This document shows, one piece after another, positions 23,040-62,282 of a stretch of 64,000 nt of DNA; position 1 is the stretch's first letter, and every line of letters starts with the position of its first letter. Source of the DNA: an uncultured beta proteobacterium (GTDB lineage Bacteria > Pseudomonadota > Gammaproteobacteria > Burkholderiales > SG8-41); NCBI GenBank assembly GCA_902825845.1, contig CADECM010000001.1, positions 98,831 to 162,830 of the forward strand. The letters are read 5' to 3'. Both the position numbers and the translations under genes were made by a program. The notes under the pieces were generated by a model, which was given only the letters and a program-made list of their open reading frames with translations, ran no database searches and was not told the DNA's origin.

Positions 23040-24341
23040 ATGAAAGCCGATTCCCATCAACCCGATGCCGCCGCCTTGCGCGACATGCTGCTGGCGGCAC
23101 GACAACGCACGCTGGCCTATGCAGGCGCGCTGCAACCCGCACAATGGCTTGGACCGTACCTGAGTATCGTCAATCCGCCGCTATGGGAGATCGGGCATGT
23201 CGGCTGGTTTCAGGAGCACTGGTGTTTGCGCTATCGATCGGCGGGAGCGCTGGCGCCGGCCCTGCTGCCCGATGCGGACGCGCGTTATAACTCCGCCATC
23301 GTGCCGCATGCGGAGCGCTGGCGACTGACGCTGCCGGAACCCACGCATACGCTGGCCTATTTGAGCGAGGTTCTGGATGCGGTGATCGCGCGTCTGATGC
23401 GAGACGGGGCGACAGACCACCTGCGCTACTTCGCGCTGCTTGCGGTGTTTCACGAGGAAATGCACAACGAAGCGTTTCATTACACGCGCCAGACGTTGGG
23501 ATATCCGCAGGCATTGCCGGCACGGGAAGCGATGCGTGCGGTGGCGCCATGCCCGGGCGACAGCGACATAACGGGCGGACGGTTCATGCTCGGTGCAAGT
23601 GAAAACACCGGATTTGTGTTTGACAATGAGAAGTGGGCGCATGAGGTTGAGGTGGCGCCGTTTCGCATGGCGCGTACTGCGGTTTGCAATGCTGAATATT
23701 CCACATTTGTCGAGGACGGCGGCTACACCAGACGCGAGTTGTGGGACGACGACGGCTGGGCCTGGCGCTCGCGCGCAGATGCCAACTGTCCACTGTATTG
23801 GGTGAAGACGGATGATAGCTGGCGCGCGCGCTACGGGGACCGCATACTGCCGCTCGCGCCCAAGGCGGCAGTGCTGCATGTGAACTGGTATGAGGCACAA
23901 GCCTATTGTGTCTGGGCGGGCCGGCGCCTGCCGTCGGAAGCCGAGTGGGAATTTGCCGCCGCAACCGCACCCGGGGTACTCGCGAGCAAGCGGCGTTATC
24001 CGTGGGGCGAGGCGCCGCCGGCTGCAACACGCGCAAATCTGTATGGCGGCGCCGGCACCACGATCGACGTCGCCGCATTGCCCGACGGCGACAGCGCTTG
24101 GGGTGTGCGTCAGATGTTCGGCAATGTGTGGGAGTGGACGGCGGACTGGTTCAACCCCTATCCCGGCTTTGTGCGCGATCCGTACAAGGAATATTCCGAG
24201 CCCTGGTTCGGCAATCACAAAGTGCTGCGCGGCGGCTGCCATGCGACGCGTGCCGGCCTGCTGCGCAACACATGGCGTAATTTTTACACGCCCGAGCGGC
24301 GCGATGTGCTGGCGGGGTTTCGCACCTGCGCTACAGACTGA
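23040..24341 (+). CDS. EgtB/OvoA/SenA-family non-heme iron sulfoxide/selenoxide synthase (DinB-like N-domain + FGE-sulfatase C-domain)
   Basis: 433 aa. Three-His motif context WEIGHVGWF plus FHEEMHNEAFH. FGE-type RLPSEAEWEFAA, GNVWEWTADW and LRGGCHAT...LAGFR. Confidence 0.8.
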   Translation: MKADSHQPDAAALRDMLLAARQRTLAYAGALQPAQWLGPYLSIVNPPLWEIGHVGWFQEHWCLRYRSAGALAPALLPDADARYNSAIVPHAERWRLTLPEPTHTLAYLSEVLDAVIARLMRDGATDHLRYFALLAVFHEEMHNEAFHYTRQTLGYPQALPAREAMRAVAPCPGDSDITGGRFMLGASENTGFVFDNEKWAHEVEVAPFRMARTAVCNAEYSTFVEDGGYTRRELWDDDGWAWRSRADANCPLYWVKTDDSWRARYGDRILPLAPKAAVLHVNWYEAQAYCVWAGRRLPSEAEWEFAAATAPGVLASKRRYPWGEAPPAATRANLYGGAGTTIDVAALPDGDSAWGVRQMFGNVWEWTADWFNPYPGFVRDPYKEYSEPWFGNHKVLRGGCHATRAGLLRNTWRNFYTPERRDVLAGFRTCATD

Positions 24342-24348
24342 GCACGCA

Positions 24349-25119
24349 TTGAAACACATCATCTCAGCTGAAAACGCACAGTTCAAGGCGCTGTTAAGAC
24401 TGATGCAATCTTCGCGCGAGCGCAGGCTTGCGGGAAAATCATTGCTTGATGGCGTGCATTTGATACAGGCTTACCGCAGCAATTACGGCTGGCCTGAACT
24501 ATTGGTGGTAAGCCGGGACGGTATGAAGAATCCTGAAGTGGCATCCTTACTGGAGGGCTGTCCTGCTATCGTGTTGCTGAACGATCCGCTGTTCCGGCAA
24601 CTGTCGTCAGTGGCAACACCAACAGGTGCCATCGCGGTCATCCAGACGCCCCGCCGCTCGGCGCCGCCCGCGGTACCCGACAGCTGCGTCCTGCTCGAAG
24701 ACCTGCAGGATCCGGGCAATCTCGGTTCAATCATGCGTTCTTGCGCCGCGGCGGGGATCAAACAGATTTTCCTGTCGGAGCGTAGTGTGAACGCTTGGTC
24801 GCCACGCGTATTGCGGGCAGGCATGGGGGCGCATTTTGTGGTGGATATCTACGAGCGTTCCGATCTGATTGCTTTGGGACGCGCATTTCCGGGTCGGGTG
24901 GTGGTCACGCAGCGTCTGGCAGTGAAAAACGTATTCGACAGCGATCTCACCGGACACGTGGCGCTGGTGTTTGGGAACGAAGGCGCGGGCGTGTCAGAAG
25001 CGCTCGTCAGGTGCGCTCATGAACTGATTGCGATTCCGATGCATGCGACTACCGAGTCACTCAATGTTGCGGCGGCAGCAGCCGTGTGCCTGTTCGAGCG
25101 GGTCAGGCAGTCTCGCTAG
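24349..25119 (+). CDS. TrmH/SpoU-family RNA 2'-O-methyltransferase
   Basis: LEDLQDPGNLGSIMRS, LVFGNEGAGVS and IPMHATTESLNVAAAAAV. The ORF-track start 23890 is inside the upstream gene, so TTG 24349 is proposed as the first start after that gene's stop. Confidence 0.85.
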   Translation: MKHIISAENAQFKALLRLMQSSRERRLAGKSLLDGVHLIQAYRSNYGWPELLVVSRDGMKNPEVASLLEGCPAIVLLNDPLFRQLSSVATPTGAIAVIQTPRRSAPPAVPDSCVLLEDLQDPGNLGSIMRSCAAAGIKQIFLSERSVNAWSPRVLRAGMGAHFVVDIYERSDLIALGRAFPGRVVVTQRLAVKNVFDSDLTGHVALVFGNEGAGVSEALVRCAHELIAIPMHATTESLNVAAAAAVCLFERVRQSR

Positions 25120-35041: not shown

Positions 35042-35065
35042 GTATTGACAGCAGGATGTCAATAC
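35042..35065. promoter_or_regulatory. inverted repeat (candidate GntR/HutC operator)
   Basis: GTATTGACA-gcagga-TGTCAATAC: 9-bp perfect arms with a 6-bp spacer. It starts 2 bp after the -12 element and spans ATG 35056. Confidence 0.45.
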
Positions 35066-35871
35066 AAGTGATAGAGAGTGAAAAGGATCGTCAGGCTTCG
35101 CCGCTGACTGCGCGTGTCGTAGCGGATACGGCCTTGGGAGACACCTGCAATCCCTCCTCACCGATCCCGCTGTACTCGCAAATTCGCGAGCTTTTACGTG
35201 CACGCATCCTGGACGGCACGTATCGCTGCGATGTCAGGATGCCATCGGAAAACGACATGGTCAGGGCTTTCGGCGTGAGTCGCATCACGGTGCGCCAAGC
35301 CTTGAATGACCTCCAAAAAGAAGGCCTGATTTTCAAAATACACGGCAAGGGCACCTTTGTTGCGCGGCCAAAGGCGGTCCAGAACCTGATGCGTCTCGAG
35401 GGCTTTGGTGAAGCGATGTCGGCCGCTGGCCACTACACGCATTCCCGTGTGTTGGGACATAGGGTGATGCGTCCCCCTCGACATATATTGGCACGCCTTG
35501 CACTGGACGAGAAGTGCGAGGTAATGGAGATCCGCCGCATTCGCTACCTCAATCACGATCCCATTTCCCTGGATGTCACTTATGTGCCGGTTGAACTGGG
35601 GCAGCGCCTGATCAAGGAAGATCTGCCGCGCCGCGACGTCTTTCTCATTCTCGAGACTGATTACGGCTTCCGCCTGGATCGCGCCGAGTTGCGTATAGAC
35701 GCGACATTGGCCGACGCGGCGCTGGCGGAAGTCCTCGCGGTAGCAGAGGGTTCGCCTGTGCTGCGTATTGAGCGCCTTACGCTGGCACTCCCGGACCAGC
35801 CGATCGACTTCGAATATCTCTATTACCGGGGTGATGCATTTCAATACTTCATGATGGTCGGGCGTCGATAA
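35056..35871 (+). CDS. GntR-family transcriptional regulator, HutC subfamily (wHTH + UTRA effector domain)
   Basis: MPSENDMVRAFGVSRITVRQALNDLQKEGLI wHTH, and a C-terminal UTRA-length domain. Start is uncertain (ATG 35056, GTG 35068 or TTG 35134). Confidence 0.88.
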   Translation: MSIQVIESEKDRQASPLTARVVADTALGDTCNPSSPIPLYSQIRELLRARILDGTYRCDVRMPSENDMVRAFGVSRITVRQALNDLQKEGLIFKIHGKGTFVARPKAVQNLMRLEGFGEAMSAAGHYTHSRVLGHRVMRPPRHILARLALDEKCEVMEIRRIRYLNHDPISLDVTYVPVELGQRLIKEDLPRRDVFLILETDYGFRLDRAELRIDATLADAALAEVLAVAEGSPVLRIERLTLALPDQPIDFEYLYYRGDAFQYFMMVGRR

Positions 35872-35916
35872 GCGCGATATGCAGCAGCGCAGCCATCCAT
35901 TGCAAGGAAGCAAGAC

Positions 35917-37653
35917 GTGACAATGAAACTGATCGAGCTGGAAACCGACGTACTGGTTGTCGGTGGCGGAACCGCAGGTCCAATGGCCGCAGTGAAGGCG
36001 AAAGAGCGCAACCCCAAGCTTCGGGTGATGCTGCTGGAAAAGGCAAACGTCAAGCGCAGTGGCGCCATCTCCATGGGCATGGACGGGCTGAACAATGCGG
36101 TGGTGCCCGGTCATGCCACGCCTGAGCAGTACACCAAAGAGATCACGATTGCCAACGACGGCATCGTCAATCAGAAAACGGTCTACGCCTATGCGAACCA
36201 TAGCTACACGACGATACAGGAACTCGATCGCTGGGGTGTGAAGTTTGAAAAGGATGAGACCGGCGATTACGCCATGCGCAAAGTGCATCATATCGGCACG
36301 TATGTATTGCCGATGCCGGAAGGGCATCATATGAAGAAGGTGCTCTACCGGCAGCTCAAACGGGCGCGGGTGGACGTCACCAACCGGGTGGTGGCGACGC
36401 GCGTGCTGACGGATAGCAAGGGACAGGCGGCCGGTTTGCTGGGATTTGACTGCAGGAGCGGGGCGTTCGTGGTGGTGCGTGCGAAAGCCGTCATTCTGTG
36501 CTGTGGCGCGGCAGGGCGCATCGGTCTGCCGACTTCAGGTTATCTGTTCGGGACTTACGAAAATCCGACCAATGCGGGCGACGGATACAGCATGGCGTTT
36601 CATGCGGGTGCCGAACTCTCCAATCTCGAATGCTTCCAGATCAATCCGTTGATCAAGGACTACAACGGTCCGGCCTGTGCCTACGTCACCGGGCCATTTG
36701 GTGGCTATACCGCGAACGCCAGGGGGGATCGCTTCATCGAATGCGATTACTGGAGCGGGCAGATGATGCAGGAGTTCTATAACGAACTGCAAAGTGGCAA
36801 CGGCCCGGTATTCCTCAAACTCGACCATCTGGCTGAAGAGACCATACAGACCATCGAGCATATTCTGCATACCAACGAGCGGCCCAGCCGTGGGCGCTTC
36901 CACAGCGGACGTAAAACCAATTACCGCGAGCGGATGATTGAGATGCACATCTCCGAAATCGGCTTTTGCAGTGGCCACAGCGCGTCTGGCGTTTACGTCA
37001 ACGAGCGTGCCGAAACCACTGTGCCTGGCCTTTATGCGGCCGGCGACATGGCCAACGTACCCCACAACTACATGCTGGGTGCCTTCACTTATGGCTGGTT
37101 TGCCGGGACTAATGCGGCGGAATACTGCGCAAATTACGACGGTGGCACAGTGGATTCGGCGCAGATTGCGGAGGAGATGAACCGTGTTTCTGCTCCCTTA
37201 CGCCATGGCGGCGGACTGCCACCCTCGCAGGTGGAATACAAATTGCGGCGCATGGTCAACGACTATTTGCAGCCGCCCAAAGCGACCCGAAAAATGAAAC
37301 TGGCGCTTGAGCGATTCGACGAAATTGGCGAGGATATCGGGAACATTTCCGCCGAGAACCCGCACGAGTTGATGCGAGCAATGGAGGTGCAGGTGATTCA
37401 TGACTGTGCGCGCATGGCGGCCCATGCCTCGCTGTTCCGCGAAGAAAGCCGCTGGGGCCTGTATCACAACCGCGTGGATTTCCCCGAGCGCGACGACGTC
37501 GATTGGTTCACCCATTGTCATCTGCGCAAGGATGACGTGGGCGCCATGAGCAGCTTCAAAAAGGCAGTCGAGCCCTATTTGTTCCCGCTGGATGACAATG
37601 AGAAAAACGCCTATCAACGGCTGCGCGTGGTTGCGCCGGCGCGGACTGCATAA
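35917..37653 (+). CDS. AprA-like FAD flavoprotein (adenylylsulfate reductase alpha / fumarate reductase superfamily)
   Basis: 578 aa. DVLVVGGGTAGPMAA dinucleotide fold. LLEKANVKRSGAISMGMDGLNNA and AAGDMANVPHNYMLGAFTYG resemble AprA rather than the SdhA motif HGANRLG seen at 53977. Confidence 0.75.
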   Translation: MTMKLIELETDVLVVGGGTAGPMAAVKAKERNPKLRVMLLEKANVKRSGAISMGMDGLNNAVVPGHATPEQYTKEITIANDGIVNQKTVYAYANHSYTTIQELDRWGVKFEKDETGDYAMRKVHHIGTYVLPMPEGHHMKKVLYRQLKRARVDVTNRVVATRVLTDSKGQAAGLLGFDCRSGAFVVVRAKAVILCCGAAGRIGLPTSGYLFGTYENPTNAGDGYSMAFHAGAELSNLECFQINPLIKDYNGPACAYVTGPFGGYTANARGDRFIECDYWSGQMMQEFYNELQSGNGPVFLKLDHLAEETIQTIEHILHTNERPSRGRFHSGRKTNYRERMIEMHISEIGFCSGHSASGVYVNERAETTVPGLYAAGDMANVPHNYMLGAFTYGWFAGTNAAEYCANYDGGTVDSAQIAEEMNRVSAPLRHGGGLPPSQVEYKLRRMVNDYLQPPKATRKMKLALERFDEIGEDIGNISAENPHELMRAMEVQVIHDCARMAAHASLFREESRWGLYHNRVDFPERDDVDWFTHCHLRKDDVGAMSSFKKAVEPYLFPLDDNEKNAYQRLRVVAPARTA

Positions 37654-37670
37654 GACGAACAGGGGACCTC

Positions 37671-37904
37671 ATGCCAACCGCCATCAATCGCACCAGTGTT
37701 CCTGTCAGTGTTGACGACGAAAAATGCATCGCCCACAAAGGTTGCACGGTTTGTGTGGACGTATGTCCGCTTGACGTGCTGGCCATCGACATCGTGAAAG
37801 GCAAGGCCTACATGAAGTTCGACGAGTGCTGGTACTGCATGCCCTGCGAACAGGATTGCCCCACAGGCGCCGTCCACGTCGATATTCCTTACCTGTTGCG
37901 TTAA
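37671..37904 (+). CDS. 2x[4Fe-4S] ferredoxin, AprB-like ferredoxin domain only
   Basis: 77 aa. Cx5CxxCxxxCP plus CxxCxxCxxxCP (CWYCMPCEQDCP). KAY..CWxC context as in AprB. It lacks the C-terminal half of AprB. Confidence 0.75.
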   Translation: MPTAINRTSVPVSVDDEKCIAHKGCTVCVDVCPLDVLAIDIVKGKAYMKFDECWYCMPCEQDCPTGAVHVDIPYLLR

Positions 37905-37916
37905 GGCAGGTCGACT

Positions 37917-38885
37917 ATGAATGCGAATGTTACGACTTTCGTCCCCGGGGATTACCGCTCCCGTCTCACCGATCCGGACGCAGAGGTGCGGCGAATAGCC
38001 GTGATGGAATTACCCTATTGTGACGAAGCGGACTTCACGCAGTTGGGTCTGGCGGCACTGTCTGATGTCGTGCCAGCCGTGCGTGCCGAGGCCGCCAGGG
38101 CGCTGGAAGGGATCGAACAGGACGAGATCGTAGCGGCGTTGGCCGCGGCATTGCGTGATGTCGATGCCGACGTGCGCGAAGCGGCCGCGCAAACTCTGTC
38201 GGAACTCAAGGACCCCGCCATGGGAGCATACATCGTGCCGGTGCTGACGGATGATGACGCATTCGCAAGGGCTGCCGCTTTTCGCGCATTGCGGGAATTG
38301 CGCATCCCCGAAGTATTTGCAACGGCACGTGCCGCGCTGTGCGATGCCGCGCCGCGGGTGCGGCGGGAGGCGGTGTCCGTCCTCGGCTACCTTAAGAATC
38401 CAGACGGGTTGGGTGAGTTGACGCGCGTGGCAATGAATGATCCCGATGAGGAAGTCAGACGCATCGCGGTCGGCGCATTGGGGTACGCCACGGACGATCA
38501 AGTGCTGCCGGCCCTGACACATGCGCTCAAAGACGTCTCGTGGCAGGTGCGGGAAGAGGCGGCGAGCACGCTGGGAAAAGTCGGGCCGCGGGATGCCGTC
38601 GATAGTATGTTGCCGGTTCTGGAAGACAGTTACAGGCAGGTGCGCATACGCGCCATTCGTAGTTTGGGACGATTGAAGGCACGCGAAGCAGTGGCGGCGA
38701 TTATCGAAATGCTTGAACACCCCGTCAGCAACGTGCGCAAAGAATCGGCGATCGCACTGGGGGAGATTGGCGACACCAAAGCGATACCGGCTCTCGAGAA
38801 GGCGCGTCAGGATGCGGATCCGGATGTGCGCAAACTGGCGCAGATTGCACTGGCCACAATGACTCGCCAGTACGCAACCAAGTGA
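37917..38885 (+). CDS. HEAT-repeat (PBS-lyase HEAT-like) protein
   Basis: 322 aa of roughly 30-aa repeats of the form D-x-D/E-x-x-VR-x-x-A-x-x-x-L-G. Confidence 0.85.
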   Translation: MNANVTTFVPGDYRSRLTDPDAEVRRIAVMELPYCDEADFTQLGLAALSDVVPAVRAEAARALEGIEQDEIVAALAAALRDVDADVREAAAQTLSELKDPAMGAYIVPVLTDDDAFARAAAFRALRELRIPEVFATARAALCDAAPRVRREAVSVLGYLKNPDGLGELTRVAMNDPDEEVRRIAVGALGYATDDQVLPALTHALKDVSWQVREEAASTLGKVGPRDAVDSMLPVLEDSYRQVRIRAIRSLGRLKAREAVAAIIEMLEHPVSNVRKESAIALGEIGDTKAIPALEKARQDADPDVRKLAQIALATMTRQYATK

Positions 38886-38898
38886 AGGCACGCAAGTG

Positions 38899-39225
38899 AT
38901 GGCACATGTGGCGACGATAGGTTTTATCGATGGCGGATTCACAAACTGCGTGAATGTCTGTCGGTTCGATTCTGTTCAGGAAGGGCTGAATTTACCCGCA
39001 CTTTATCGGGATGATTGTAGCGATTGGATGCAGTGTGTGGCCGAGTCTCTGGAGAAAGCCAATTTCGAGGCCGGTGAAGTCACCCTACCGCAGAAGCACT
39101 TTGCCGGGTTTAAAGAACGCAGTGCAACAGCATGGCCGGTCATTACGGAAAGGCGCGAGCCGCTGCGGGAAGCGGCACGTTGGTCAGGCGTTATTCCAAA
39201 ACTGGCGCAAGTGAAGGACGTTTGA
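38899..39225 (+). CDS. Azotobacter-type (7Fe FdxA-like) ferredoxin homolog with degenerate cluster-binding cysteines
   Basis: 108 aa. Aligns without gaps to my recollection of A. vinelandii FdI (WP.ITE..PL, W.GV..KL conserved). Only Cys16, 20, 39 and 45 are retained. Cys8, 11, 24, 42 and 49 are replaced by F, G, S, W and S. Confidence 0.7.
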   Translation: MAHVATIGFIDGGFTNCVNVCRFDSVQEGLNLPALYRDDCSDWMQCVAESLEKANFEAGEVTLPQKHFAGFKERSATAWPVITERREPLREAARWSGVIPKLAQVKDV

Positions 39226-39267
39226 GCAGGCATGGTTGGTCGTGGATATTTAAAGGAGATGGGCATC

Positions 39268-40731
39268 ATGACGACGGGCGAACGCAGTATTGGTGCTACC
39301 TTGGGGAAATTCAAGGCGCTGCGCGGTATGGTTGTGGGCGGATGCATGGGCGCGGTCCTGCTGTCTGCGGCTTCACAAGCCCAGACCACGATCAAGATCG
39401 GCATTGGCACACAGAACACGACTACCAACACCGTTACCGGGGGCATGGTCATCAAGGAGCTCAAACTGCTTGAAAAACATCTGCCGCGGACGGGGAAATA
39501 TGCCAAGGTGACGTACGAGTTCGACTGGCAGAACGCCACGTCCGGACCACCCATCACCAACGGCATGATGGCCGATAAGATCCAGATTGGCATGATGGGC
39601 GACTATCCGCTATTGGTCGCTGGCGCGACCGGACAGGCGACGAGGAATGAGACACAACTGATCGCAGTCATTGCCTACAACCAGTTTGGCGCAGGTAACG
39701 GTGTTGTGGTGCACAAGGATTCTCCGTACTATGAATTGTCTGATTTGAAGGGAAAGCTGCTGTCAGTCCCCTTCGGCTCGGCGGCGCACGGCATGATGCT
39801 GCAGGCGATGCAGGCAAGAGGCTGGCCGGATACATTCTGGAGGTTGGTGAGTCAGTCGCCGGAAGTCGGAACCACCAATCTGCAGGAAAAACGCATCGAC
39901 GGTCACGGCGACTTTGTGCCGTTTGCTGAATTGCTGCCGTATCGTGGTTTCGCGCGCAAGATCTTCGACGGTGCAGAAACCAAGGTTCCAACCTTTCATG
40001 GCGTGGTGATTCGCAAGGATTTCGGCGAGAAATATCCTGAAATTGTGGTTGCCTACATCAAGGCGTTGATGGAAGCAAACGACTGGGTCCGCAAAGATCC
40101 GAAGGTCGCGATGACCAAAGTCGAAGAGTGGACCAAGATCGAGAAGGAAGTGGCCTACGTTTTCCTCGGACCCAGCGGCATCCACACATTGGATCCGACG
40201 ATCAAGCCGAAGTGGGTCGAGACAATCGGCGTCGTATATGACGTGCTCAAGAAGATGGGGCGCGTGAAAGCCTTCGATGTGAAAGCGTGGATCAATGAGA
40301 GCTATCTCAAGCAAACGTACAAGGAACTGAATCTCGATTACGACAAGCAGAAGGCCTCGTTTGCGGGTTATGAAATTGCCGGCAAAGATACGCTGTGTAA
40401 CGGCACGATCACCAAACCTCGCGAAGCTGGAGAAATCTGGATCTCCGGCGCAGACATTGTCCCGTTCAGCTCCACCGTTTGCACCCTGGCTGCCATCAAA
40501 AAGCTGCAAGGCGAAGGCAAGAAGATCGCTGTGGCCTATGTGTTCGATAAGTCGCTCGGCATCAAGATGTTCGCGGACAAGGCCTTTTACGCGGTCAACG
40601 CCACAGATCCCCAAAAGCCCCTGATTGCGCCCTTCCTGCTAAAAAAGGATGCCGAAGCGCATGTCGCCAAGGGGGGCGGCAAGCTTGCCTCGTATGCCGA
40701 GGCGCTGGCCGCGGCAAACATCGGCAAATAG
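39268..40731 (+). CDS. ABC transporter substrate-binding protein (NMT1/SsuA/TauA-like) with extra C-terminal NosL-like domain
   Basis: Signal peptide MVVGGCMGAVLLSAASQA. ATG 39268 lies 9 nt after AAGGAG. The last ~125 aa resemble NosL (FSSTVC..., AFYAV...PLIAPFLLKKDAEAHVAKGGGKL). Confidence 0.8.
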   Translation: MTTGERSIGATLGKFKALRGMVVGGCMGAVLLSAASQAQTTIKIGIGTQNTTTNTVTGGMVIKELKLLEKHLPRTGKYAKVTYEFDWQNATSGPPITNGMMADKIQIGMMGDYPLLVAGATGQATRNETQLIAVIAYNQFGAGNGVVVHKDSPYYELSDLKGKLLSVPFGSAAHGMMLQAMQARGWPDTFWRLVSQSPEVGTTNLQEKRIDGHGDFVPFAELLPYRGFARKIFDGAETKVPTFHGVVIRKDFGEKYPEIVVAYIKALMEANDWVRKDPKVAMTKVEEWTKIEKEVAYVFLGPSGIHTLDPTIKPKWVETIGVVYDVLKKMGRVKAFDVKAWINESYLKQTYKELNLDYDKQKASFAGYEIAGKDTLCNGTITKPREAGEIWISGADIVPFSSTVCTLAAIKKLQGEGKKIAVAYVFDKSLGIKMFADKAFYAVNATDPQKPLIAPFLLKKDAEAHVAKGGGKLASYAEALAAANIGK

Positions 40732-40753
40732 CGCGTGAGTGAGGAGCCGCTTC

Positions 40754-41680
40754 ATGGACAGTGTGCATGTACTGCGCAAGGCGGAGCCTCCGGTGAAAGA
40801 CTATCGGAGCGAAGTCGATCCGGCGCCGCCAAAAGGGCGTGGCACAGCATTGTCTGCTGCGCCGGCGATTCCACCCAATTCAGCAGCGATATGGTTGCGC
40901 AGCAAGGGCGTCAGCATGCTGCTATGGGTCGTCTCGCTTGGCATCATGCTCGCCTTCTGGTACGTCGTCACCCGCTACAAACTCGAGTTCTACATCCGCT
41001 TTGTTAACGTGCCGACGCCAGCAGAAGTTATGCAAAAAGTGGTCGAGGTCAATCAGTCCGGTAAATTTCTGGTGAATATCGGCTACAGCGTTCGCCGCAT
41101 TCTGATCGGATTTTCCATCGCTGTGGTGCTGGGTGCAGCCATGGGATTGCTGATCGGCCGATATCGCTTTATGCGCGATATGTTATTTCCCATCTGCGAG
41201 GTGTTGAGACCGATCCCCGCGATTGCATGGGTGCCAATGGCGATCATGTTGTGGCCGACCAACGAGGTGAGCATCGTATTCATCACCTTTATGGGCTCAT
41301 TCTTCCCGATCCTGATCAATACCATCCACGGTGTGCACTCGATTGATCCGGTATTGATACGCGCCGCGCGCAGTCTCGGAGCCAACGAGTACCGCCTGTT
41401 CGCGAATGTAATTTTGCCTGGCGCAATGCCGCATATTTTTACCGGATTCTCCGTGGGCATGGGTGTGGCCTGGGTATCGCTGATTGCCGCGGAGATGATC
41501 TCGGGACAGTTCGGTATCGGTTATTTCACGTGGGAGGCTTATTCGCTGGTCAGTTACGCCGAAATTGGGCTTGGCATGATCACCATTGGTGTTCTTGGAC
41601 TGGCGTGTAGTGGGGCTATTCAAATCACGGGCAAGCTCTTGATGCCTTGGGCTTCCTATGCCGGAGCAGAAAAGAAATGA
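40754..41680 (+). CDS. ABC transporter permease (NitT/TauT family)
   Basis: Six-TM BPD-type permease with an EAA-like loop (IRAARSLGANEYRLFANVILPGAMP). GAGGAG RBS 7 nt before ATG 40754. Confidence 0.88.
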   Translation: MDSVHVLRKAEPPVKDYRSEVDPAPPKGRGTALSAAPAIPPNSAAIWLRSKGVSMLLWVVSLGIMLAFWYVVTRYKLEFYIRFVNVPTPAEVMQKVVEVNQSGKFLVNIGYSVRRILIGFSIAVVLGAAMGLLIGRYRFMRDMLFPICEVLRPIPAIAWVPMAIMLWPTNEVSIVFITFMGSFFPILINTIHGVHSIDPVLIRAARSLGANEYRLFANVILPGAMPHIFTGFSVGMGVAWVSLIAAEMISGQFGIGYFTWEAYSLVSYAEIGLGMITIGVLGLACSGAIQITGKLLMPWASYAGAEKK

Positions 41681-42537
41681 ATGGCAATTCCAAAGGTGCC
41701 ATCGACATTCACGATCTTGGCGTCGTTTTCATTGCTGGTGACACCAGGGTCGAGGCCGTGAGCGCCGTAAACATGAACATCAAGCCGGGAGAATTTGTTT
41801 CGCTGATCGGCCCTTCCGGATGCGGCAAATCGACATTGCTCAACATCGTTGCCGGATTTGTGCAGCCCAGTTTCGGTGCCGCATCGATTGATGGCGCGAC
41901 AATAAAGGGGCCTGGATCAGAATGCGGTGTGGTATTTCAGCAATATTCGCTTTTTCCCTGGTTGTCGGTAAGAAAAAACGTTGAGTTTGGCCTGAAAATG
42001 AAAGGTGCTCCGGCTTCGGTGCGGGAAACTCAGGCTCGAACCTTGCTCGGATTGGCAGGGCTCCTGGCGTTTGAAAATCACTATCCTGATCAACTGTCGG
42101 GCGGCATGAAGCAGCGGGTCGGCATCGTTCGCGCGTTGGCGACCAGTCCGCAGGTGCTGCTGATGGATGAGCCGTTCGGTGCGCTCGACGCGCAAACGCG
42201 GGTGGTGATGCAGGAAATCCTAACCAACATGTGGCAGCGCTTCCGCATCTCGGTGCTTTTTGTTACCCATGATATCGAGGAGTCGATTTTTCTCTCCGAC
42301 AGGATTTATGTAATGACCGCGCGTCCCGGGCGTATCAAGGCCGAAATCATAGTGCCGCTTGCCAGGCCGCGCACGCCGGAAATGACCGCGTCCGCCGAGT
42401 TCATTGCCATGGTGCAACAGCTGAAGCGGTTGATACGCGAAGAGTCACTGGCGGCGATGGGCGCGGAGTTGAAGGACGGAGGACTAAGCGGGTTTGGCAC
42501 GGCGGTGGGCCCAAGCGGTATTGCTGAAATGATATGA
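41677..42537 (+). CDS. ABC transporter ATP-binding protein (NitT/TauT family)
   Basis: Walker A GPSGCGKST, signature LSGGMKQR, Walker B LLMDEPFGALD. ATGA overlap with the permease. Confidence 0.93.
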   Translation: MNGNSKGAIDIHDLGVVFIAGDTRVEAVSAVNMNIKPGEFVSLIGPSGCGKSTLLNIVAGFVQPSFGAASIDGATIKGPGSECGVVFQQYSLFPWLSVRKNVEFGLKMKGAPASVRETQARTLLGLAGLLAFENHYPDQLSGGMKQRVGIVRALATSPQVLLMDEPFGALDAQTRVVMQEILTNMWQRFRISVLFVTHDIEESIFLSDRIYVMTARPGRIKAEIIVPLARPRTPEMTASAEFIAMVQQLKRLIREESLAAMGAELKDGGLSGFGTAVGPSGIAEMI

Positions 42538-42547
42538 GTGCGGAGTC

Positions 42548-45500
42548 ATGAAGCCTGGCCGGCCCGATTTGGTGCGGCCAGTGGAAATCAGGCTGCGTAC
42601 GGCGGCAAAGGTGCTGGAAATGGACTGGCAGGATGGTTCGTCTTCAATTTGGGCGCATAGCGTGTTGCGAGAAAGCTGCCGGTGTGCCGGTTGCACGGCT
42701 GAGCGTCGCAGGGGCAAGGCAGTGGTGGCGGCGGCAGATATCATTCTAATCGAGGTAATGCCTTATGGTTCTGGTGCGTTGTGTTTCAGTTTCAGTGACG
42801 GACACAAGCGCGGCATATACCCATTTGAGTACCTGCGACAGTTGGCAGGCCGCAGCATTCCCAACGTTCCTACGGGTCCGGTAGCCACAGCGCGTGTTGA
42901 GGGGATTGCCATGATCGGCGATAATCCAAAACTTTTACACACATTGCGTGAAAACTTGATAGCACCTGTACGCACATCCCCAGCGCTTGCGCTTCGTTTC
43001 GGGTATTCATTTCTCGATTTGTACGATGGCGAGGCCTTGGCACGCCTTGATGCTACGTTCCTCGGCTACGTGGCGACGGCGGAAGCTGCGCTGCGAGATC
43101 GCGTCGTTTCCGCTCGTCAGGATAGCGCAGGACTCAGCGCAAAAATGGAGTCCGAGCTGCTACTGGCGCTAACGCCACATATTGATGCATTTCTCGGTGA
43201 ACTATTTGGCATTGAGAATGAAATCGCCACGCTGTCGGGTGCGCACCATGACTTGGCGCCGCTCTATTCCGTGAAGCGCTTGTTCGTCCAGCGTAAGGCC
43301 GCAAACAAATACAAGGGTGATGCCGCCCTTCAACTGGATGGTCCGGAACTTGCCGCGAGGCTGGCTCCGATGCTGGGAGATGCGCTCACTGAGTTGGGTT
43401 TTGCGAAAAAGGTCCTTGAGTGGCAGCAAGACGAGGCAGGACATGTTGAGCAGCTTGAATTGGCGCTGCAGTATGCGGCGTGGGCTTTGCTGACGCCGGC
43501 CGGACAGCGGAAACACCATGATGGCGTTTTGTTCAAGGCGCCGCATAAACTCGACGCGCAGCATCTGGTGCCGACCACAGTGGATACCAGGCAGGGTTAT
43601 TCCACGCATACCTTTCCGGTTGAAAAGTTGCGCCGGAGGGAAGGTTTCAAACTCACCGACAAGGGCGCCGATCTGACGGGCGCGCTGGATCAGGCAAATT
43701 ATTGCATCTGGTGTCATGAGCAAGGCAAGGATTCCTGTTCCAAGGGCCTGCTGGAAAAAGGCGCCACTGGCCGCGGCGTGGCTTCGTTCAAAAAGAGTCT
43801 GTTTGGCGTAACGCTCGCCGGGTGTCCGCTGGAAGAGAAGATTTCCGAGTTTCACAAGGCCAAGACCGCCGGTTATGCCATTGGCGCGCTGGCGATCATT
43901 ACGGTGGACAACCCGATGGCGGCCGCCACCGGACATCGCATCTGCAACGATTGCATGAAGGCCTGCATTTACCAGAAGCAGGAGCCGGTGGATATTCCGC
44001 AGGCGGAAACGCGCACGCTGAAGGACGTGCTGGGGTTGCCGTGGGGTTTTGAGATTTACAGCCTGCTGACGCGCTGGAATCCGCTGAATTTGCGCAACCC
44101 GTATCCGAAGGCGGCCAGCGGCAAGCGCGTGCTGATTGCGGGCATGGGGCCGGCGGGATTTGCGCTTGCGCACTATCTGATGAACGACGGGCACAGCGTG
44201 GTGGGCATCGATGGATTGAAGATCGAACCTTTGCCCGCGAATCTTTCTGGCGTGGATGCGGCGGGCCGGCGCGTGCCGTTCACGCCGATCCGCGATATTC
44301 GCGACTTGTATGAGCGGCTGGACGAGCGGGTGATGGCCGGTTTTGGCGGCGTGGCAGAATATGGCATTACCGTGCGATGGGACAAAAATTTCCTAAAAAT
44401 CATAAGGTTATTGCTGGAGCGCCGGTCACAGTTCGCGCTCTTCGGCGGCGTGCGTTTTGGCGGCACTGTCACTGCGGAAGACGCCTTTGCGATGGGATTC
44501 GACCACGTGTCTCTGGCGATCGGCGCGGGACGGCCGACGGTGCTGGACATGCCGAACGGGCTGGCACGCGGCGTGCGCACGGCCTCGGATTTCCTGATGG
44601 CACTGCAGCTCACCGGCGCTGCGCGCACCGATTCCATCGCCAATATGCAGTTGCGTCTGCCGGTGGTGGTGGTGGGCGGCGGGCTGACGGCGATCGACAC
44701 CGCCACCGAGTCGCTGGCGTACTATCCGCTGCAGGTCGAAAAATTTCTCAAGCGCTACGAAGCCATGGCGCGCGAGCACGGCGAAATGGCGGCGCGCCTT
44801 GCCTGGAACGAGGAAGAGCGCATTATCGCCGATGAATTTCTCGCGCATGCGCGCGCCCTGCGCGAGGAGCGTGCCCGGGCAGCCCCGGAAAATCGCGAGC
44901 CGCGAATCGCCGAACTGTTACAGGCGTGGGGAGGGGCGACCATTGCCTATCGCAAACGCCTGGTTGACAGCCCTTCTTACACACTGAATCACGAAGAGGT
45001 ACACAAGGCGCTCGAAGAAGGCATACGCTTTGCTGAAGGCTTGACGCCCACGGCGGTTGAAGTTGATTCTTATGGTCACGCCGCGGCGTTGAAGGTCGCG
45101 GCCGGCGAGCGTGCGTTCACGCTGCGCGCACGCACCATTCTGATTGCTGCCGGTACGCAGCCGAACACCGTGTTGGCGCGCGAGGATGCCGCCCACTTCA
45201 AACTCGACGGCCGCTATTTTCAGGCTGTGGATTCTGCAGGTAATCCGGCGTCGGCCGAGAAGGCAATCGCAAAGCCCAATGAAATCAATGTGTTACTGTC
45301 AAGGCTCGCAGATGGCCGCTGCATGAGTTATTTCGGTGACGTGCATCCATCGTTTTTTGGCAATGTGGTCAAGGCGATCGGCAGCGCGAAGCAGGGTCAT
45401 CCCGTGGTCAGCCGGGTTCTCGAGGCGGTTCGTCCCGCGGCGATCATCGATGATGAAGCCTTTTTCGCGCGTCTAAACGACGACTTGCGTGCCACGGTGC

Positions 45501-46468
45501 ACGAGGTGAAGCGTCTAACGGCGATGATTGTTGAAGTAGTGGTGCGAGCCCCGCTGGCCGCGCGTCGCTTTCAGCCGGGGCAGTTTTACCGCTTGCAGAA
45601 TTTTGAATCGATCGCGCCCCGTCTGGAAGGCACGCGGTTGGGTATGGAAGGCTTGGCGCTGACCGGCGCATGGGTGGACCGTGAACGCGGCCTTATTTCC
45701 ACCATTGTGCTGGAGATGGGCGGGTCCAGCGATCTGTGCCTGCTGTTGAAGCCGGGAGAGCCGGTGATTCTCATGGGGCCCACTGGTACGCCGACGGAAA
45801 TCCCCGCAAACGAGACCGTTGCGCTGGTGGGCGGTGGACTGGGCAATGCGGTGCTGTTTTCCATTGGGCAGGCCATGCGCAAGGCGGGCAACAAGGTACT
45901 GTATTTTGCCGGCTACAAAAAAATGACCGACCGCTACAAAATCGAGGAAATTGAAGCCGCGGCCGATGTGGTGGTGTGGTGCTGTGACGACGAACCGGGC
46001 TTCACACCGACGCGAGCGCAGGACAAGACGTTTGTGGGGAATATCGTGCAGTGCATGCATGCCTATGCGATAGGCGATCTCGGTGTACAACCGATCCCAC
46101 TGCGGAATGCCGATCGCATTATCGCCATCGGCTCGGACCGCATGATGGCAGCGGTGGCGCGCGCGCGTCACGACATCCTGAAGCCGTTCGTCAAGCCGCA
46201 TCATTTCGCGATCGGTTCCATCAATTCGCCGATGCAGTGCATGATGAAGGAAATCTGCGCGCAATGCCTGCAGGCGCATGTGGATCCGGCAAGCGGCAAG
46301 ACAAGTTATGTGTTCTCGTGTTTTAATCAGGATCAACCGCTCGATCAAGTGGATTGGAGTGGTCTGAATCAGCGTTTGCGGCAGAACGCCGTGCAGGAAA
46401 AACTAACCGCGGAATGGCTGGATTATTGTCTGATCAAATCAGGCGCGCGCGAGATGCAGCGAATTTAG
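42548..46468 (+). CDS. 1306-aa multidomain oxidoreductase: DUF971 (GBBH-like N) + unknown ~270-aa region + GltD/NfnB-like FeS/FAD/NAD(P) module + PyrK/NfnA-like FNR module with C-terminal [2Fe-2S] motif
   Basis: aa 44-49 CRCAGC plus His86 (DUF971 Zn site). Cys386/389/397/426/466/469/473 with GCPLEEKI (GltD-type). GMGPAG (aa 532-537) and GGGLTA (aa 710-715) Rossmann motifs. FQPGQFYRL and LVGGGLGNA (FNR-like). C1231-x5-C-x2-C-x17-C1258. Confidence 0.75.
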   Translation: MKPGRPDLVRPVEIRLRTAAKVLEMDWQDGSSSIWAHSVLRESCRCAGCTAERRRGKAVVAAADIILIEVMPYGSGALCFSFSDGHKRGIYPFEYLRQLAGRSIPNVPTGPVATARVEGIAMIGDNPKLLHTLRENLIAPVRTSPALALRFGYSFLDLYDGEALARLDATFLGYVATAEAALRDRVVSARQDSAGLSAKMESELLLALTPHIDAFLGELFGIENEIATLSGAHHDLAPLYSVKRLFVQRKAANKYKGDAALQLDGPELAARLAPMLGDALTELGFAKKVLEWQQDEAGHVEQLELALQYAAWALLTPAGQRKHHDGVLFKAPHKLDAQHLVPTTVDTRQGYSTHTFPVEKLRRREGFKLTDKGADLTGALDQANYCIWCHEQGKDSCSKGLLEKGATGRGVASFKKSLFGVTLAGCPLEEKISEFHKAKTAGYAIGALAIITVDNPMAAATGHRICNDCMKACIYQKQEPVDIPQAETRTLKDVLGLPWGFEIYSLLTRWNPLNLRNPYPKAASGKRVLIAGMGPAGFALAHYLMNDGHSVVGIDGLKIEPLPANLSGVDAAGRRVPFTPIRDIRDLYERLDERVMAGFGGVAEYGITVRWDKNFLKIIRLLLERRSQFALFGGVRFGGTVTAEDAFAMGFDHVSLAIGAGRPTVLDMPNGLARGVRTASDFLMALQLTGAARTDSIANMQLRLPVVVVGGGLTAIDTATESLAYYPLQVEKFLKRYEAMAREHGEMAARLAWNEEERIIADEFLAHARALREERARAAPENREPRIAELLQAWGGATIAYRKRLVDSPSYTLNHEEVHKALEEGIRFAEGLTPTAVEVDSYGHAAALKVAAGERAFTLRARTILIAAGTQPNTVLAREDAAHFKLDGRYFQAVDSAGNPASAEKAIAKPNEINVLLSRLADGRCMSYFGDVHPSFFGNVVKAIGSAKQGHPVVSRVLEAVRPAAIIDDEAFFARLNDDLRATVHEVKRLTAMIVEVVVRAPLAARRFQPGQFYRLQNFESIAPRLEGTRLGMEGLALTGAWVDRERGLISTIVLEMGGSSDLCLLLKPGEPVILMGPTGTPTEIPANETVALVGGGLGNAVLFSIGQAMRKAGNKVLYFAGYKKMTDRYKIEEIEAAADVVVWCCDDEPGFTPTRAQDKTFVGNIVQCMHAYAIGDLGVQPIPLRNADRIIAIGSDRMMAAVARARHDILKPFVKPHHFAIGSINSPMQCMMKEICAQCLQAHVDPASGKTSYVFSCFNQDQPLDQVDWSGLNQRLRQNAVQEKLTAEWLDYCLIKSGAREMQRI

Positions 46469-46545: not shown

Positions 46546-47634
46546 ATGAACCTTGGCTTTTTTACCATGCCCATCCATCCGCCGGAGCGCAACTACACGC
46601 AAACGCTGAAGGAGGATCGCGAGGCCATTCTGTTGGCTGACAAATTGGGCTACAGCGATGCCTTCATTGGCGAGCACACGACGGATATCTGCGAAAATAT
46701 CCCATCGTGTCTCGCGTTTATCGCAAGTCTTGCGCACGAAACGCGACAGATCAAGCTGGGCAGCGGCACTGTAAACCTTCCGAACGGTCATCCGGCCGCC
46801 ATCGCAGCGAACGTTGCAATGGTCGATCACATGCTGGAAGGGCGCTTCCTGTTCGGAATTGGGCCAGGCGGCTTGCGTTCGGATCAGGAAGTGTTCGGCA
46901 ATATCAAGAACGACCGCACGCGAATGTTCGTCGAGTCAATCGATCAGATTCTCGCTATTTGGGACGGCAAGCCGCCTTACGACATCAAGGGCGAATTCTG
47001 GAACATCAGCACGGGTGAAACCATGATCCCCGAAGTGGGGCAGGGGGTGATGCTGAAACCGTACCAGCAACCGCATCCGCCGATCGTCGTCACCGTGGTC
47101 GAACCCTTTTCCAAGGGCGTTGCGGCTGCGGCGCAGCGTGGCTGGAAACCCATTTCGGCCAACTTTCTGCAGCCCAACTGGGTGAAAACGCATTTCACCA
47201 GCTATCAGCAGGGCTGTGAAATTGCCGGGCTGTCGGCCAAGCGCGAGGATTGGCGCGTCTGCAAAAGCATCTTTGTCGCCGATGACGATGCCACAGCAAT
47301 GCGCTACGCCAAGACGCTCGAGGGGCCTTACGGTTTTTATTTCTGGAACTTGCTGACCAAGCGCAAGGCGCGTGGCGCAGCGAACATCTACAAACCCGAT
47401 CTGGCGATGCCTGATGAGGCAGTAACGGTGCAATTTGTGCTGGATACACTGGTTATCGCGGGCAGTGTCAATTCCGTTGTGGATCAGTTGCTGAAGTTTC
47501 GCGAGACCACCGGTGACTTTGGCACTTTGCTATATTGCGGACATGACTGGGTGGATCCGACGCTGGCACGGCGATCCATGCAACTCATGGCGGAACAGGT
47601 AATGCCGCGCGTGAATGCGGCGATTCATGCGTAA
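46546..47634 (+). CDS. LLM-class (luciferase-like) flavin-dependent monooxygenase, LimB-like subgroup
   Basis: 362 aa. MNLGFFTMPIHPP...GYSDAFIGEHTTD...KLGSGTVNLPNGHPAAIAANVAMVDHMLEGRFLFGIGPGG is typical of the bacterial luciferase family. Confidence 0.82.
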   Translation: MNLGFFTMPIHPPERNYTQTLKEDREAILLADKLGYSDAFIGEHTTDICENIPSCLAFIASLAHETRQIKLGSGTVNLPNGHPAAIAANVAMVDHMLEGRFLFGIGPGGLRSDQEVFGNIKNDRTRMFVESIDQILAIWDGKPPYDIKGEFWNISTGETMIPEVGQGVMLKPYQQPHPPIVVTVVEPFSKGVAAAAQRGWKPISANFLQPNWVKTHFTSYQQGCEIAGLSAKREDWRVCKSIFVADDDATAMRYAKTLEGPYGFYFWNLLTKRKARGAANIYKPDLAMPDEAVTVQFVLDTLVIAGSVNSVVDQLLKFRETTGDFGTLLYCGHDWVDPTLARRSMQLMAEQVMPRVNAAIHA

Positions 47635-49112: not shown

Positions 49113-50555
49113 TTAAACGGCAAAGTGATCAACAAACTCGTGCACCGGGGTGTCCTCCAGCTTTTTCTGGTCTTTGCACAAGTTGTAAATGGTCGTGCGC
49201 TGCTTGTCCGCAAAGCGCCGCGCCAGATTGGTTCTGAATTTCGCCTCGAGCAGCGGAATCCCGTCCTTGCGCCGGCGGCGATGGCCGATGGGATATTCGA
49301 CGGCGACATTGGCGGTCTTGCTGCCATCCTTGAAGAACACCTGCAAGGCATTGGCAATGGAACGCTTTTTCGGATCGAGATAATCGCGGGTCCACGGTTT
49401 GTGCTCCACGCACACCATTTTGTTGCGCAGCGCATCCACGCGTGGATCGCGCGCAACCGCTTCTTCGTAATCCGCGGCCGTCAGATTGCCCTTGATCAGA
49501 CCGATCGCGCACATGTATTGGATGCAGTGATCGCGATCGGCGGGATTGTTGAGTGGCCCGCTCTTGTCGATGATGCGTATCGCCGACTCGTGCGTGGTGA
49601 TGACAACCTGCTTGATGTCATGCAAGCGGTCTTTAACCTCGGGATGCAGTCTGACGGCGCACTCCACGGCAGTCTGCGCATGAAACTCCGCAGGAAATGA
49701 AATCTTGAACAATACGTTTTCCATGACATACGCCGCGTACGGCTGCTTCAGCACAAAGGGCTGCCCCTTGAACAGCACGTCATAAAAGCCCCAGGTTTTG
49801 GCTGTCAGTGCCGTGGGGTAACCCATTTCGCCTCGCTGCGCCATCAGCGCCAAGCGCACGCCGCGGCTGGTTGCGTCTCCGGCGGCCCACGACTTGCGCG
49901 AGCCGGCCTGCGGCGCATGGCGATAGGCGCGCAGCGACTGGCCATCGATCCATGCATTCGATACTGCATTGACGATTTCGTCATGGCTGCAGCCAAGCAT
50001 ATGGGCAACCACCGCAGTCGTGGCCACCTTGACCAGCACCACGTGATCGAGTCCCACGCGATTGAAACTGTTTTCAAGTGCAATCACGCCCTGAATTTCG
50101 TGCGCCTTGATCATGGCAGTAAGCACTTCGCGCATGGTCAGCGGTTTCCTGCCCGCGGCAACTGCGTTGCGCGACAACCAGTCTGCCACGGCCAGAATGC
50201 CGCCCATATTGTCCGAGGGGTGGCCCCATTCCGCGGCCAGCCATGTGTCATTAAAATCCAGCCAGCGGATCATGCAGCCGATGTTGAACGCGGCCATTAC
50301 GGGATCGAGCTGGTATGACGTGCCGGGCACTTTTGCGCCATTGGGCACGATGGTGCCTGGGACAATGGGCCCCATCAGCTTGGTGCACGCGGGGTAGGTC
50401 AGCGCTTCAAGCCCGCAGCCGAGGGTATCCATCAGGCACAACCGCGCGGTGTTGTAGGCCTCGGCACTGCGGATCGTATATTTCGCGGCGTAATTCGCGA
50501 TGTCGGTGATGACTTTGTCGGGTTTGGTGCGGGTGTTGGAGATGGCGGCGGTCAT
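49113..50555 (-). CDS. prpD: 2-methylcitrate dehydratase
   Basis: 480 aa. Near-colinear high similarity to E. coli PrpD as I recall it ([31 protein letters not shown]). Confidence 0.93.
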
Positions 50556-50572
50556 GGTTTCTTTTGAAAGGC

Positions 50573-50647
50573 GTGAACGAGTGAACGGGTGAACGAGTGA
50601 ACGGGTGGGGTGTGCGATGTTACTCGTTCACCCGTTCACTTGTTCAC
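50573..50647. repeat. octamer-periodic hairpin repeat (GTGAACGR x4, loop, inverted YCGTTCAC x3)
   Basis: GTGAACGA GTGAACGG GTGAACGA GTGAACGG ... CTCGTTCAC CCGTTCAC TTGTTCAC, in the prpC-prpD spacer. The prpC stop codon lies in the last unit. Confidence 0.8.
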
Positions 50648-51795: not shown

Positions 51796-51816
51796 GATGA
51801 TTTCCTTTCAGTCTTC

Positions 51817-51860: not shown

Positions 51861-51872
51861 AAATTCAGACGC

Positions 51873-55746: not shown

Positions 55747-55765
55747 GTGGCAACAAGGATCCAAG

Positions 55766-56461: not shown

Positions 56462-56473
56462 GCGGGACGCAGG

Positions 56474-62278: not shown

Positions 62279-62282
62279 AGGC

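Follow-up and report, generated by a model that had tools for sequence, protein, structure and literature searches.

The window, a 64,000-nucleotide stretch of DNA from an uncultured beta proteobacterium, carries the genes for a 578-residue flavoprotein and a 77-residue ferredoxin, which are separated by 17 bp. On the basis of sequence comparison and structural modeling, we assign the flavoprotein with high confidence, as regards its identity and architecture, as the α subunit of an AprAB-type oxidoreductase that is sister to the dissimilatory adenylyl-sulfate (APS) reductases and the methanogen 3′-phosphoadenylyl-sulfate (PAPS) reductase. For its function we propose, tentatively and at slightly less than even weight for the reading as a whole, a ferredoxin-fed reductase that would release sulfite from an imported organosulfur anion. 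An earlier sequence-only reading of this DNA had picked out the two open reading frames (ORFs) as an AprA-like flavoprotein with a truncated AprB-like partner, and both are present on the + strand (Table 1).

A flavoprotein and short ferredoxin of the AprAB type

We built a neighbor-joining tree of 65 sequences that included AprA from Archaeoglobus fulgidus and Desulfovibrio gigas, the PAPS reductase of Methanothermococcus thermolithotrophicus (MtPAPSR), a genuine AsfA, the SdhA of the window, and 55 representatives of the hits in an exhaustive HMMER search; the AprA and MtPAPSR sequences were rebuilt from PDB alignments. The window family and its ~40%-identical relatives formed a clade sister to AprA plus the MtPAPSR-like proteins, with AsfA outside. 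Pairwise identities of the flavoprotein were ~30% to MtPAPSR, 22–29% to AprA, and 23–26% to AsfA. It scored below the cut-offs of the AprA model (TIGR02061, 167.9 bits versus 641.75) and of the archaeal-type “adenylyl-sulfate reductase alpha” model (NF005331, 297 bits versus 557), and far under those of all SdhA, FrdA, NadB, TfrA, and TcuA models. The phylogeny and these scores bear out the idea of a divergent Apr-family member, outside the canonical AprA clade: the protein is placed beside AprA and MtPAPSR and inside neither. The family is in fact already catalogued, but misnamed. The flavoprotein matches NF006131 (PRK08275) at 1093.8 bits (cut-off 587), with residues 2–573 on model positions 3–574 of 577, and is an ordinary member of that family, whose NCBI product name is [quoted passage not shown].

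The best sequence matches among solved structures were MtPAPSR (8a8o_A, E = 3.7e-66) and then A. fulgidus AprA (1jnr_A, 1.2e-38), with FrdA and SdhA at ~1e-24 or weaker. When an AlphaFold2 model of the flavoprotein (predicted local distance difference test score 89.5) was compared with Foldseek, the template-modeling (TM) scores were 0.88/0.92 for 8a8o_A, 0.89/0.80 for 1jnr_A, and 0.83 for FrdA structures. The model points to an AprA-like, three-domain fold, and the motif RSG, where SdhA and FrdA have RSH, suggests that flavin adenine dinucleotide (FAD) is held non-covalently, in the Apr style. The motifs that had been quoted as AprA-type, KRSGAISMGMDGLNNA and AAGDMANVPHNY, are indeed in the flavoprotein, and the SdhA-type HGANRLG is in the sdhA of the window (53782–55746).

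The database name itself, a fumarate reductase or succinate dehydrogenase flavoprotein, we regard as next to impossible. It agrees with the Pfam domains of the protein (FAD_binding_2 and Succ_DH_flav_C), with the superfamily and domain order that it shares with SdhA and FrdA, and with the TM score of the FrdA structures, but the dicarboxylate and covalent-FAD residues are missing: the SdhA/FrdA signatures RSH, QxHPT, proton-donor Arg, and HGANRLG are all lacking here, whereas the window's own SdhA has them. The partner is a 77-residue ferredoxin instead of an SdhB-type subunit, no membrane anchor accompanies the pair, and the window has a complete sdhAB at another site.

We mapped the active site in A. 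fulgidus AprA numbering and compared the window protein with members from Pseudomonas, Burkholderia, Cellvibrionaceae, and Viridibacterium, a 64%-identical relative, and a 925-residue fusion protein. The catalytic and APS-binding residues of AprA we take, from work on 2fja and from a published study of MtPAPSR (PMC10322725), to be Asn74, Trp234, Arg265, Arg317, and His398. The Apr and PAPSR clade shares Asn74, Trp234–Tyr235, Arg260, and Arg265 and nearly always has (V/T)273–Gly274, Arg317, Tyr393, and His398; MtPAPSR and its own clade keep Trp234, Tyr235, Arg260, Arg265, and nearly all of them Arg317, which the window family does not. Only Asn74 (N59) and His398 (H354) survive in the window family, both invariant, and the remaining positions carry family-constant replacements (W234Y, Y235E, R260F, R265L, G274C, R317M, and Y393G, with Ala-Cys at 273–274). 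Also missing are the insertions that Apr enzymes have in their capping and helical regions. The sequence thus appears to preserve the scaffold together with the pair of flavin-side residues with which the sulfite adduct makes contact in AprA, with the catalytic Arg and the nucleotide cradle gone. This speaks against APS, PAPS, or fumarate as the substrate and is in line with the earlier suggestion that the substrate is possibly a different one.

We conclude that the flavoprotein is, as far as its residues predict, not an APS or PAPS reductase. The opposite view, that it is a genuine enzyme of this kind, serving either to assimilate sulfate or to oxidize sulfite, with sat encoded elsewhere, seems very improbable to us. 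MtPAPSR and AprA are the best sequence and structure matches, and Asn74 and His398 are kept; nevertheless, the protein lies below both curated cut-offs, and Arg265, Arg260, Trp234, Arg317, Gly274, and Tyr393 are replaced. Moreover, sat, cysC, and qmo were found neither among the window ORFs scanned with family models (22042–61022) nor in the related loci inspected, and an organic-anion importer would be senseless for APS. The claim that sat, qmo, and aprM are missing around the pair held among the ORFs scanned.

The partner had been described as AprB-like, with two four-cysteine motifs and without the C-terminal half, and this description is accurate. The protein has eight cysteines (C19, C25, C28, C32, C53, C56, C59, and C63) with the GKAYMKFDECWYCMPCEQDCP context present; conservation in 92 homologues is at least 95% for all eight cysteines and for the Trp-Tyr that follows the fifth, the D-E-C-W-Y-C segment is invariant, and the IPYLLR end is conserved. 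Against the aprB model TIGR02060, it covers only positions 2–64 of 132 and scores 37 bits (cut-off 136). From its residue 11 it aligns to residues 1–62 of D. gigas AprB (3gyx_B, 166 residues) and then stops, and it likewise aligns to residues 2–64 of A. fulgidus AprB (150 residues). In the 3gyx_B alignment, it shares the Trp that follows the first cysteine of the second AprB motif. Its sequence thus suggests a β subunit that consists of the ferredoxin core of AprB and retains the Trp through which electrons reach FAD in Apr enzymes.

The missing tail, which the sequence-only reading had stressed, is real but not unique to this locus; rather, it is the rule in neighboring families. The β subunit of MtPAPSR has 104 residues, and the “AprAB-like” proteins (DiSCo, Neukirchen and Sousa) lack the AprB tail as well (PMC8477390). 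The ~40%-identical relatives in our set (L211–L214) pair with ferredoxins of 64–78 residues in other contexts, where the neighbor is a TctCBA transporter, a radical SAM enzyme, or a membrane protein of the YeiH family (PF03601). These contexts hint that two-subunit Apr-like enzymes form a larger superfamily with diverse substrates.

Compared with characterized systems, the window pair retains the AprAB scaffold and differs in its active site, which has been re-tooled, in its accessory proteins, which are new, and in having an importer dedicated to it. MtPAPSR (8a8o; PMC10322725), the best sequence and fold match to its α subunit, and the AprAB-like proteins of Clostridia, Archaeoglobi, and others (PMC8477390) are like it in combining a flavoprotein with a short, tail-less di-cluster β subunit, in the flavin-side Asn and His and the β Trp, and in an assimilatory, not respiratory, setting; nitT/tauT transporters have been noted near some AprAB-like genes (PMC8477390). 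Unlike MtPAPSR, the window protein falls in a separate clade and under the NF005331 cut-off, has lost Arg265, Arg260, Trp234, and Arg317, has no sat, APS kinase, or PAP phosphatase gene nearby, is joined by HEAT, DUF971, and GntR proteins, and belongs to aerobic Proteobacteria rather than anaerobes. The AprAB enzymes of A. fulgidus (1jnr/2fja) and D. gigas (3gyx) share with it the α fold, the apparently non-covalent FAD, Asn74, His398, and a β core with CWxC; in contrast to them, its β subunit is without the C-terminal ~90–100 residues, the APS-binding and catalytic Arg residues are replaced, and no sat, QmoABC, or AprM gene was found among the scanned ORFs or in the related loci with listed genes.

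A conserved gene module around the pair

Relatives were sought in one genome per GTDB species, and at least 583 species representatives matched. We counted neighbors in the best 80 loci of these relatives and in an extended set of 91 loci, which spans Beta-, Gamma-, and Alphaproteobacteria, Acidithiobacillia, and an unclassified high-GC genome. A ferredoxin homologue was present in all of the best 80 loci, a GntR homologue stood immediately upstream of the flavoprotein in 78, and a HEAT gene was found in 77. In the extended set, 77 of the 91 loci had a DUF971 gene. An SsuA-like ATP-binding cassette (ABC) importer is present in most loci. Gene tables show the module in Metapseudomonas, Burkholderia, Cellvibrionaceae, and Viridibacterium.

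The unclassified high-GC genome has GntR, ferredoxin, binding-protein, permease, and ATPase genes together with a flavoprotein–HEAT fusion (P0136, 925 residues). This is the architecture of PRK13800 (NF010374), a natural flavoprotein–HEAT fusion whose C-terminal part (617–896) is matched by the HEAT protein of the window, and the fusion argues that the HEAT protein binds the α subunit physically. DUF971, whose CxCxxC...H motif is conserved in 78 homologues, is fused to the Nfn-like protein in the window and its nearest relatives.

On annotated replicons, the module is found in Methylobacterium (pMRAD01), Rhizobium, Acinetobacter baumannii, Aquabacterium (pTB101), and Acidithiobacillus caldus (pTcM1). 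Its carriage on plasmids and chromids in several classes indicates that the module is mobile, and this carriage together with identities of 66–92% across proteobacterial classes, which are unusually high, suggests horizontal spread. The A. baumannii copies are present in clinical isolates.

The regulators of the module are GntR (HutC/PhnF-like) or Crp-like proteins and not of the CysB/SsuR type. We considered the Crp-family regulators of the alphaproteobacterial loci as FNR-type oxygen sensors and rejected this because they are without the N-terminal cysteine cluster. A perfect palindrome at the GntR gene start has no second copy in the window, did not occur in any of 100 shuffles, and was found elsewhere only in two contigs with an identical flavoprotein (L205 and L206) and in no other related locus; it is possibly a lineage-specific operator.

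Electron donors differ among lineages. The window has an FdxA-like protein and a 1306-residue Nfn-like protein, Methylobacterium radiotolerans has FdxA and a ferredoxin-NADP reductase after the transporter, and A. caldus pTcM1 adds FdxA and a 1153-residue FAD oxidoreductase; some other lineages are without a dedicated donor. The occurrence of three different NAD(P)H-linked donors on the same core points to a reductive reaction fed through ferredoxins, and we presume that the 1306-residue fusion is the NAD(P)H-linked electron donor in the window. The HEAT, ferredoxin-like, and Nfn-like fusion genes, from which the sequence-only reading had suggested a different electron partner, are present as described. 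That suggestion stands in so far as HEAT, DUF971, importer, and GntR genes, not sat, Qmo, or AprM, are what is conserved with the pair; it does not extend to the Nfn-like fusion, which is limited to close relatives (L001, L004–L007, L035, and L047) and A. caldus pTcM1.

Candidate function and its rivals

In the reaction that we propose, the compound taken up by the ABC system would be an organosulfur anion such as a sulfonate or a sulfate ester, and not APS or PAPS. Electrons would pass from NAD(P)H to the Nfn-like or ferredoxin-NADP reductase-type enzyme, then through FdxA where it is intact to the β clusters and on to FAD. As in APS reductase, N5 of the reduced FAD would then attack the sulfo group, and the sulfite so released would be assimilated. 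The HEAT protein may stand in for the absent AprB tail as a clamp or scaffold, and DUF971 could maintain, protect, or mature the Fe-S clusters in aerobic hosts; phenotypes in Fe-S maintenance have been described for a DUF971 paralogue (bioRxiv 10.1101/072470). On this view, the HEAT protein would cover the α surface that the AprB tail takes up in 1jnr, and the pocket formed by Tyr214, Glu215, Asn245, Cys255, Cys351, and His354 would suit a small anion better than a nucleotide. A precedent for reductive, sulfite-releasing assimilation of sulfonates is the nitrogenase-like IsrBHDK (PMC11423573).

The link of the module to sulfur is circumstantial. The only PDB relatives of the binding protein are Escherichia coli TauA (6ssy, 8e-15), SsuA (3uif and 2x26), and the Xanthomonas citri alkanesulfonate binder 3e4r; the sulfonate contacts of TauA, which are mostly main-chain amides with unmatched numbering, could not be mapped reliably onto it. 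Unsupervised clustering gave a TauD-family dioxygenase (16 of 91 loci) and a DszA/NtaA-type monooxygenase (9 of 91) as the commonest non-core neighbors. In Metapseudomonas lalkuanensis, one flank of the module holds genes for a cystine ABC transporter, D-cysteine desulfhydrase (dcyD), and MetQ-like and methionine-gamma-lyase-like proteins, and the other flank an OPT-family transporter gene followed by tauD-tauCBA. A gene for a TauE/SafE sulfite exporter adjoins the GntR gene in Viridibacterium and Aquabacterium. For the A. caldus copy, a 2025 plasmid survey (PMC12375680) gives the labels “ferredoxin/APS reductase/GntR” and “NitT/TauT sulfonate transporter” and, from annotation alone, proposes organosulfonate assimilation for this cargo module.

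Several points weigh against a sulfite-releasing reductase. Arg265, which is catalytic in AprA, is Leu here, so that Apr-type N5 chemistry is not assured, and cleavage of a C–S bond through attack by flavin N5 is chemically demanding unless the leaving group is stabilized. The binding protein stays under the cut-off of the SsuA family (Table 1), and NitT/TauT binders also accept nitrate, bicarbonate, pyrimidines, and aromatic acids. Sulfur-related neighbors occur in only ~10–20% of the loci, mainly in Pseudomonas and Paraburkholderia, and most loci have none; a 38%-identical outgroup relative (P0146) is paired with a TctCBA carboxylate transporter instead. The FdxA-like protein of the window has lost five of nine cysteines, all of which are intact in five aligned homologues (L001, L002, L006, L215, and L216). 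Its closest relatives, which are among these homologues, are 47–50% identical to it and 89% identical in the flavoprotein, and the gene retains the conserved C-terminal DUF3470 part. To judge from these residues the protein is probably degenerate and no longer a 7Fe ferredoxin, in which case the donor may reduce the β subunit directly. Finally, a literature search turned up no experimental test of function for NF006131/PRK08275 or PRK13800, and no substrate, product, or phenotype for any NF006131 member.

Some of these points would suit an oxidoreductase that serves carbon or nitrogen nutrition and acts on an imported anion without sulfur, be it an organic acid, a nitro compound, or a heterocycle; we consider this reading unlikely. 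Besides the chemically broad transporter family, the low SsuA score, the TctCBA transporter of the nearest outgroup P0146, and the many loci without sulfur genes, this explanation can draw on one member that adjoins a Rieske ring-hydroxylating dioxygenase and on regulators that are not of the CysB/SsuR type. On the other hand, the nearest characterized enzymes all make sulfite and all solved relatives of the binding protein bind sulfonates. The recurrent TauD-family and DszA/NtaA-type neighbors are likewise at odds with a sulfur-free substrate, as are the two loci with TauE/SafE and the one with D-cysteine desulfhydrase and a cystine ABC transporter, and the dicarboxylate residues of SdhA/FrdA are missing.

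A further explanation, which we rate as distinctly unlikely, is that the pair leaves the imported compound itself untouched and is an electron module in the style of AsfAB, feeding a separate desulfonating oxygenase (an SsuD/DszA-type flavin monooxygenase or similar). AsfA and AsfB of Pseudomonas putida S-313 and rhizosphere bacteria have the same outline as the window system, namely, a Frd-superfamily flavoprotein, a small 2×[4Fe-4S] ferredoxin, a sulfonate-type binding protein, and aerobic soil hosts, and they have been described as an electron-transport “tool-kit” for aromatic desulfonation (PMC4267179); a biochemical role is not known to have been demonstrated for either pair. The genuine asfAB locus that we located adjoins an NtaA/DmoA-type monooxygenase, and a luciferase-like monooxygenase gene lies downstream in the window, DszA/NtaA-type genes being found in the nine loci already mentioned. 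However, the module has no conserved oxygenase partner, and the window monooxygenase reaches no NCBIfam cut-off and has no homologue in the 80 related loci. AsfB (128 residues) has a long C-terminal tail and no relay Trp, the AsfA/AsfB system has a LysR regulator (AsfR) and no HEAT or DUF971 partner, and AsfA lies outside the clade of the Apr and window families. The retention of the substrate-side Asn and His of Apr would also be unexpected in a mere electron carrier.

Orthology with AsfA/AsfB was rejected on the published primers, the genuine asfAB locus, and the protein comparison, in which genuine AsfA was 26% identical and outside the clade. Of the primers asfAF1all and AsfBtoA, one had no match in the window at up to three mismatches and the other had a single three-mismatch site at 48676, outside the cluster; the asfA primers had no exact match in the 80 related loci. 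Some genomes have both the module and an asfB-primer match, among them Paraburkholderia sediminicola LMG 24238 (one of several with the two on different contigs), Pseudomonas sp. LRF_L74, and Phytopseudomonas flavescens LMG 18387 (on the same contig). If such sites mark asfB, then the two systems would coexist in one genome and not replace each other.

The locus, its setting, and what the module would mean

The module genes of the window form a tight + strand run (35056–46468) with intergenic gaps of 6–45 bp in the ORF list and a single overlap of 34 bp, between the permease and ATPase ORFs as listed. The gene caller starts the GntR gene 12 nt further downstream, giving 267 residues. The 1306-residue fusion scores 804.6 bits against NF005128, under the cut-off of 1072. 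A promoter and terminator scan of the operon gave nothing above shuffled expectation, and an Rfam search of the whole window and the leader region returned no riboswitch or other RNA.

Table 1. Features of the operon and its immediate surroundings in the window
Feature	Coordinates	Strand	Basis
Candidate operator (putative function), perfect 9+9 palindrome GTATTGACA-N6-TGTCAATAC	35042–35065	none	Read directly; overlaps GntR gene start
GntR/HutC-type regulator with UTRA effector domain	35056–35871	+	Pfam GntR 7e-20, UTRA 1.3e-33
Predicted α subunit, FAD flavoprotein, AprA/PAPS-reductase-like, NF006131 (PRK08275), 578 residues, GTG start	35917–37653	+	NF006131 match
Predicted β subunit, 77-residue 2×[4Fe-4S] ferredoxin corresponding to the N-terminal AprB half	37671–37904	+	Pfam Fer4_7; TIGR02060 partial match
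HEAT-repeat (PBS-lyase type) protein, 322 residues; presumed scaffold bound to α	37917–38885	+	Pfam HEAT_2 2e-57
FdxA-like (DUF3470) protein, 109 residues	38896–39225	+	NF045490 FdxA 55 bits versus cut-off 135
Periplasmic binding protein of NitT/TauT-family ABC importer, 499 residues, SsuA/TauA-like, with C-terminal extension	39232–40731	+	TIGR01728 SsuA_fam 103 bits versus cut-off 163.5
ABC permease (TauC/SsuC/NtrB-like)	40739–41680	+	Pfam BPD_transp_1; NCBIfam TauC 1.7e-38, SsuC 1.9e-35
ABC ATPase (TauB-like)	41647–42537	+	Pfam ABC_tran; NCBIfam taurine ATPase 1.3e-71
1306-residue fusion: N-terminal DUF971, GltD/NfnB-like FAD/Fe-S and PyrK/NfnA-like FAD/NAD modules	42548–46468	+	Pfam GBBH-like_N 14–97, Fer4_20, Pyr_redox_2
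Luciferase-like monooxygenase; operon membership uncertain	46546–47634	+	Pfam Bac_luciferase 1.6e-42; 77 bp past fusion gene

Upstream of the operon lie ppsR, pps, pyrG, kdsA, eno, ftsB, and folD, and downstream, after the luciferase-like monooxygenase, prpD, two citrate-synthase-family genes (50644–51795 on the − strand and 56760–58058 on the + strand), mdh, sdhAB, and sucA. The stretch 49113–63778, with prpD, the citrate-synthase genes, mdh, sdhA/sdhB, and 2-oxoglutarate dehydrogenase E1, is an ordinary central-metabolism block unrelated to the operon; prpD paired with the first citrate-synthase-family gene is consistent with a methylcitrate cycle, the second citrate-synthase gene being a probable gltA. 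Selenoneine biosynthesis genes lie ~12 kb upstream of the operon: senB (22042–22989, − strand; TIGR04348, 406 bits versus cut-off 300) and senA (23040–24341, + strand; NF041186, 501 bits versus cut-off 420), the latter overlapped by another ORF at 23890–25119.

Organically bound sulfur is the main sulfur pool of soils, and to our knowledge the known aerobic routes that free it use oxygenases (SsuD, TauD, and MsuD) or sulfatases. Taken jointly, the boldest form of our proposal is that the pair is the catalytic core of an unrecognized, horizontally mobile, oxygenase-free sulfo-group reductase pathway of aerobic soil bacteria and opportunists, by which we mean A. baumannii and the Burkholderia cepacia complex, with a dedicated HEAT clamp and a dedicated DUF971 guardian of the Fe-S clusters; we hold this whole to be rather unlikely. 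If the reaction is indeed reductive, ferredoxin-driven, and sulfite-releasing, then the sulfur cycle would gain a new enzymatic route, “fumarate reductase” would have to be replaced in thousands of annotations, and the HEAT and DUF971 partners would get their first functional context. With five to eight genes and culturable hosts, the module is a directly testable system. Even with a sulfur-free substrate, the family would be a clean case of a re-tooled AprA scaffold, in which the Asn and His were kept, both Arg residues lost, and a Cys and Tyr-Glu gained.

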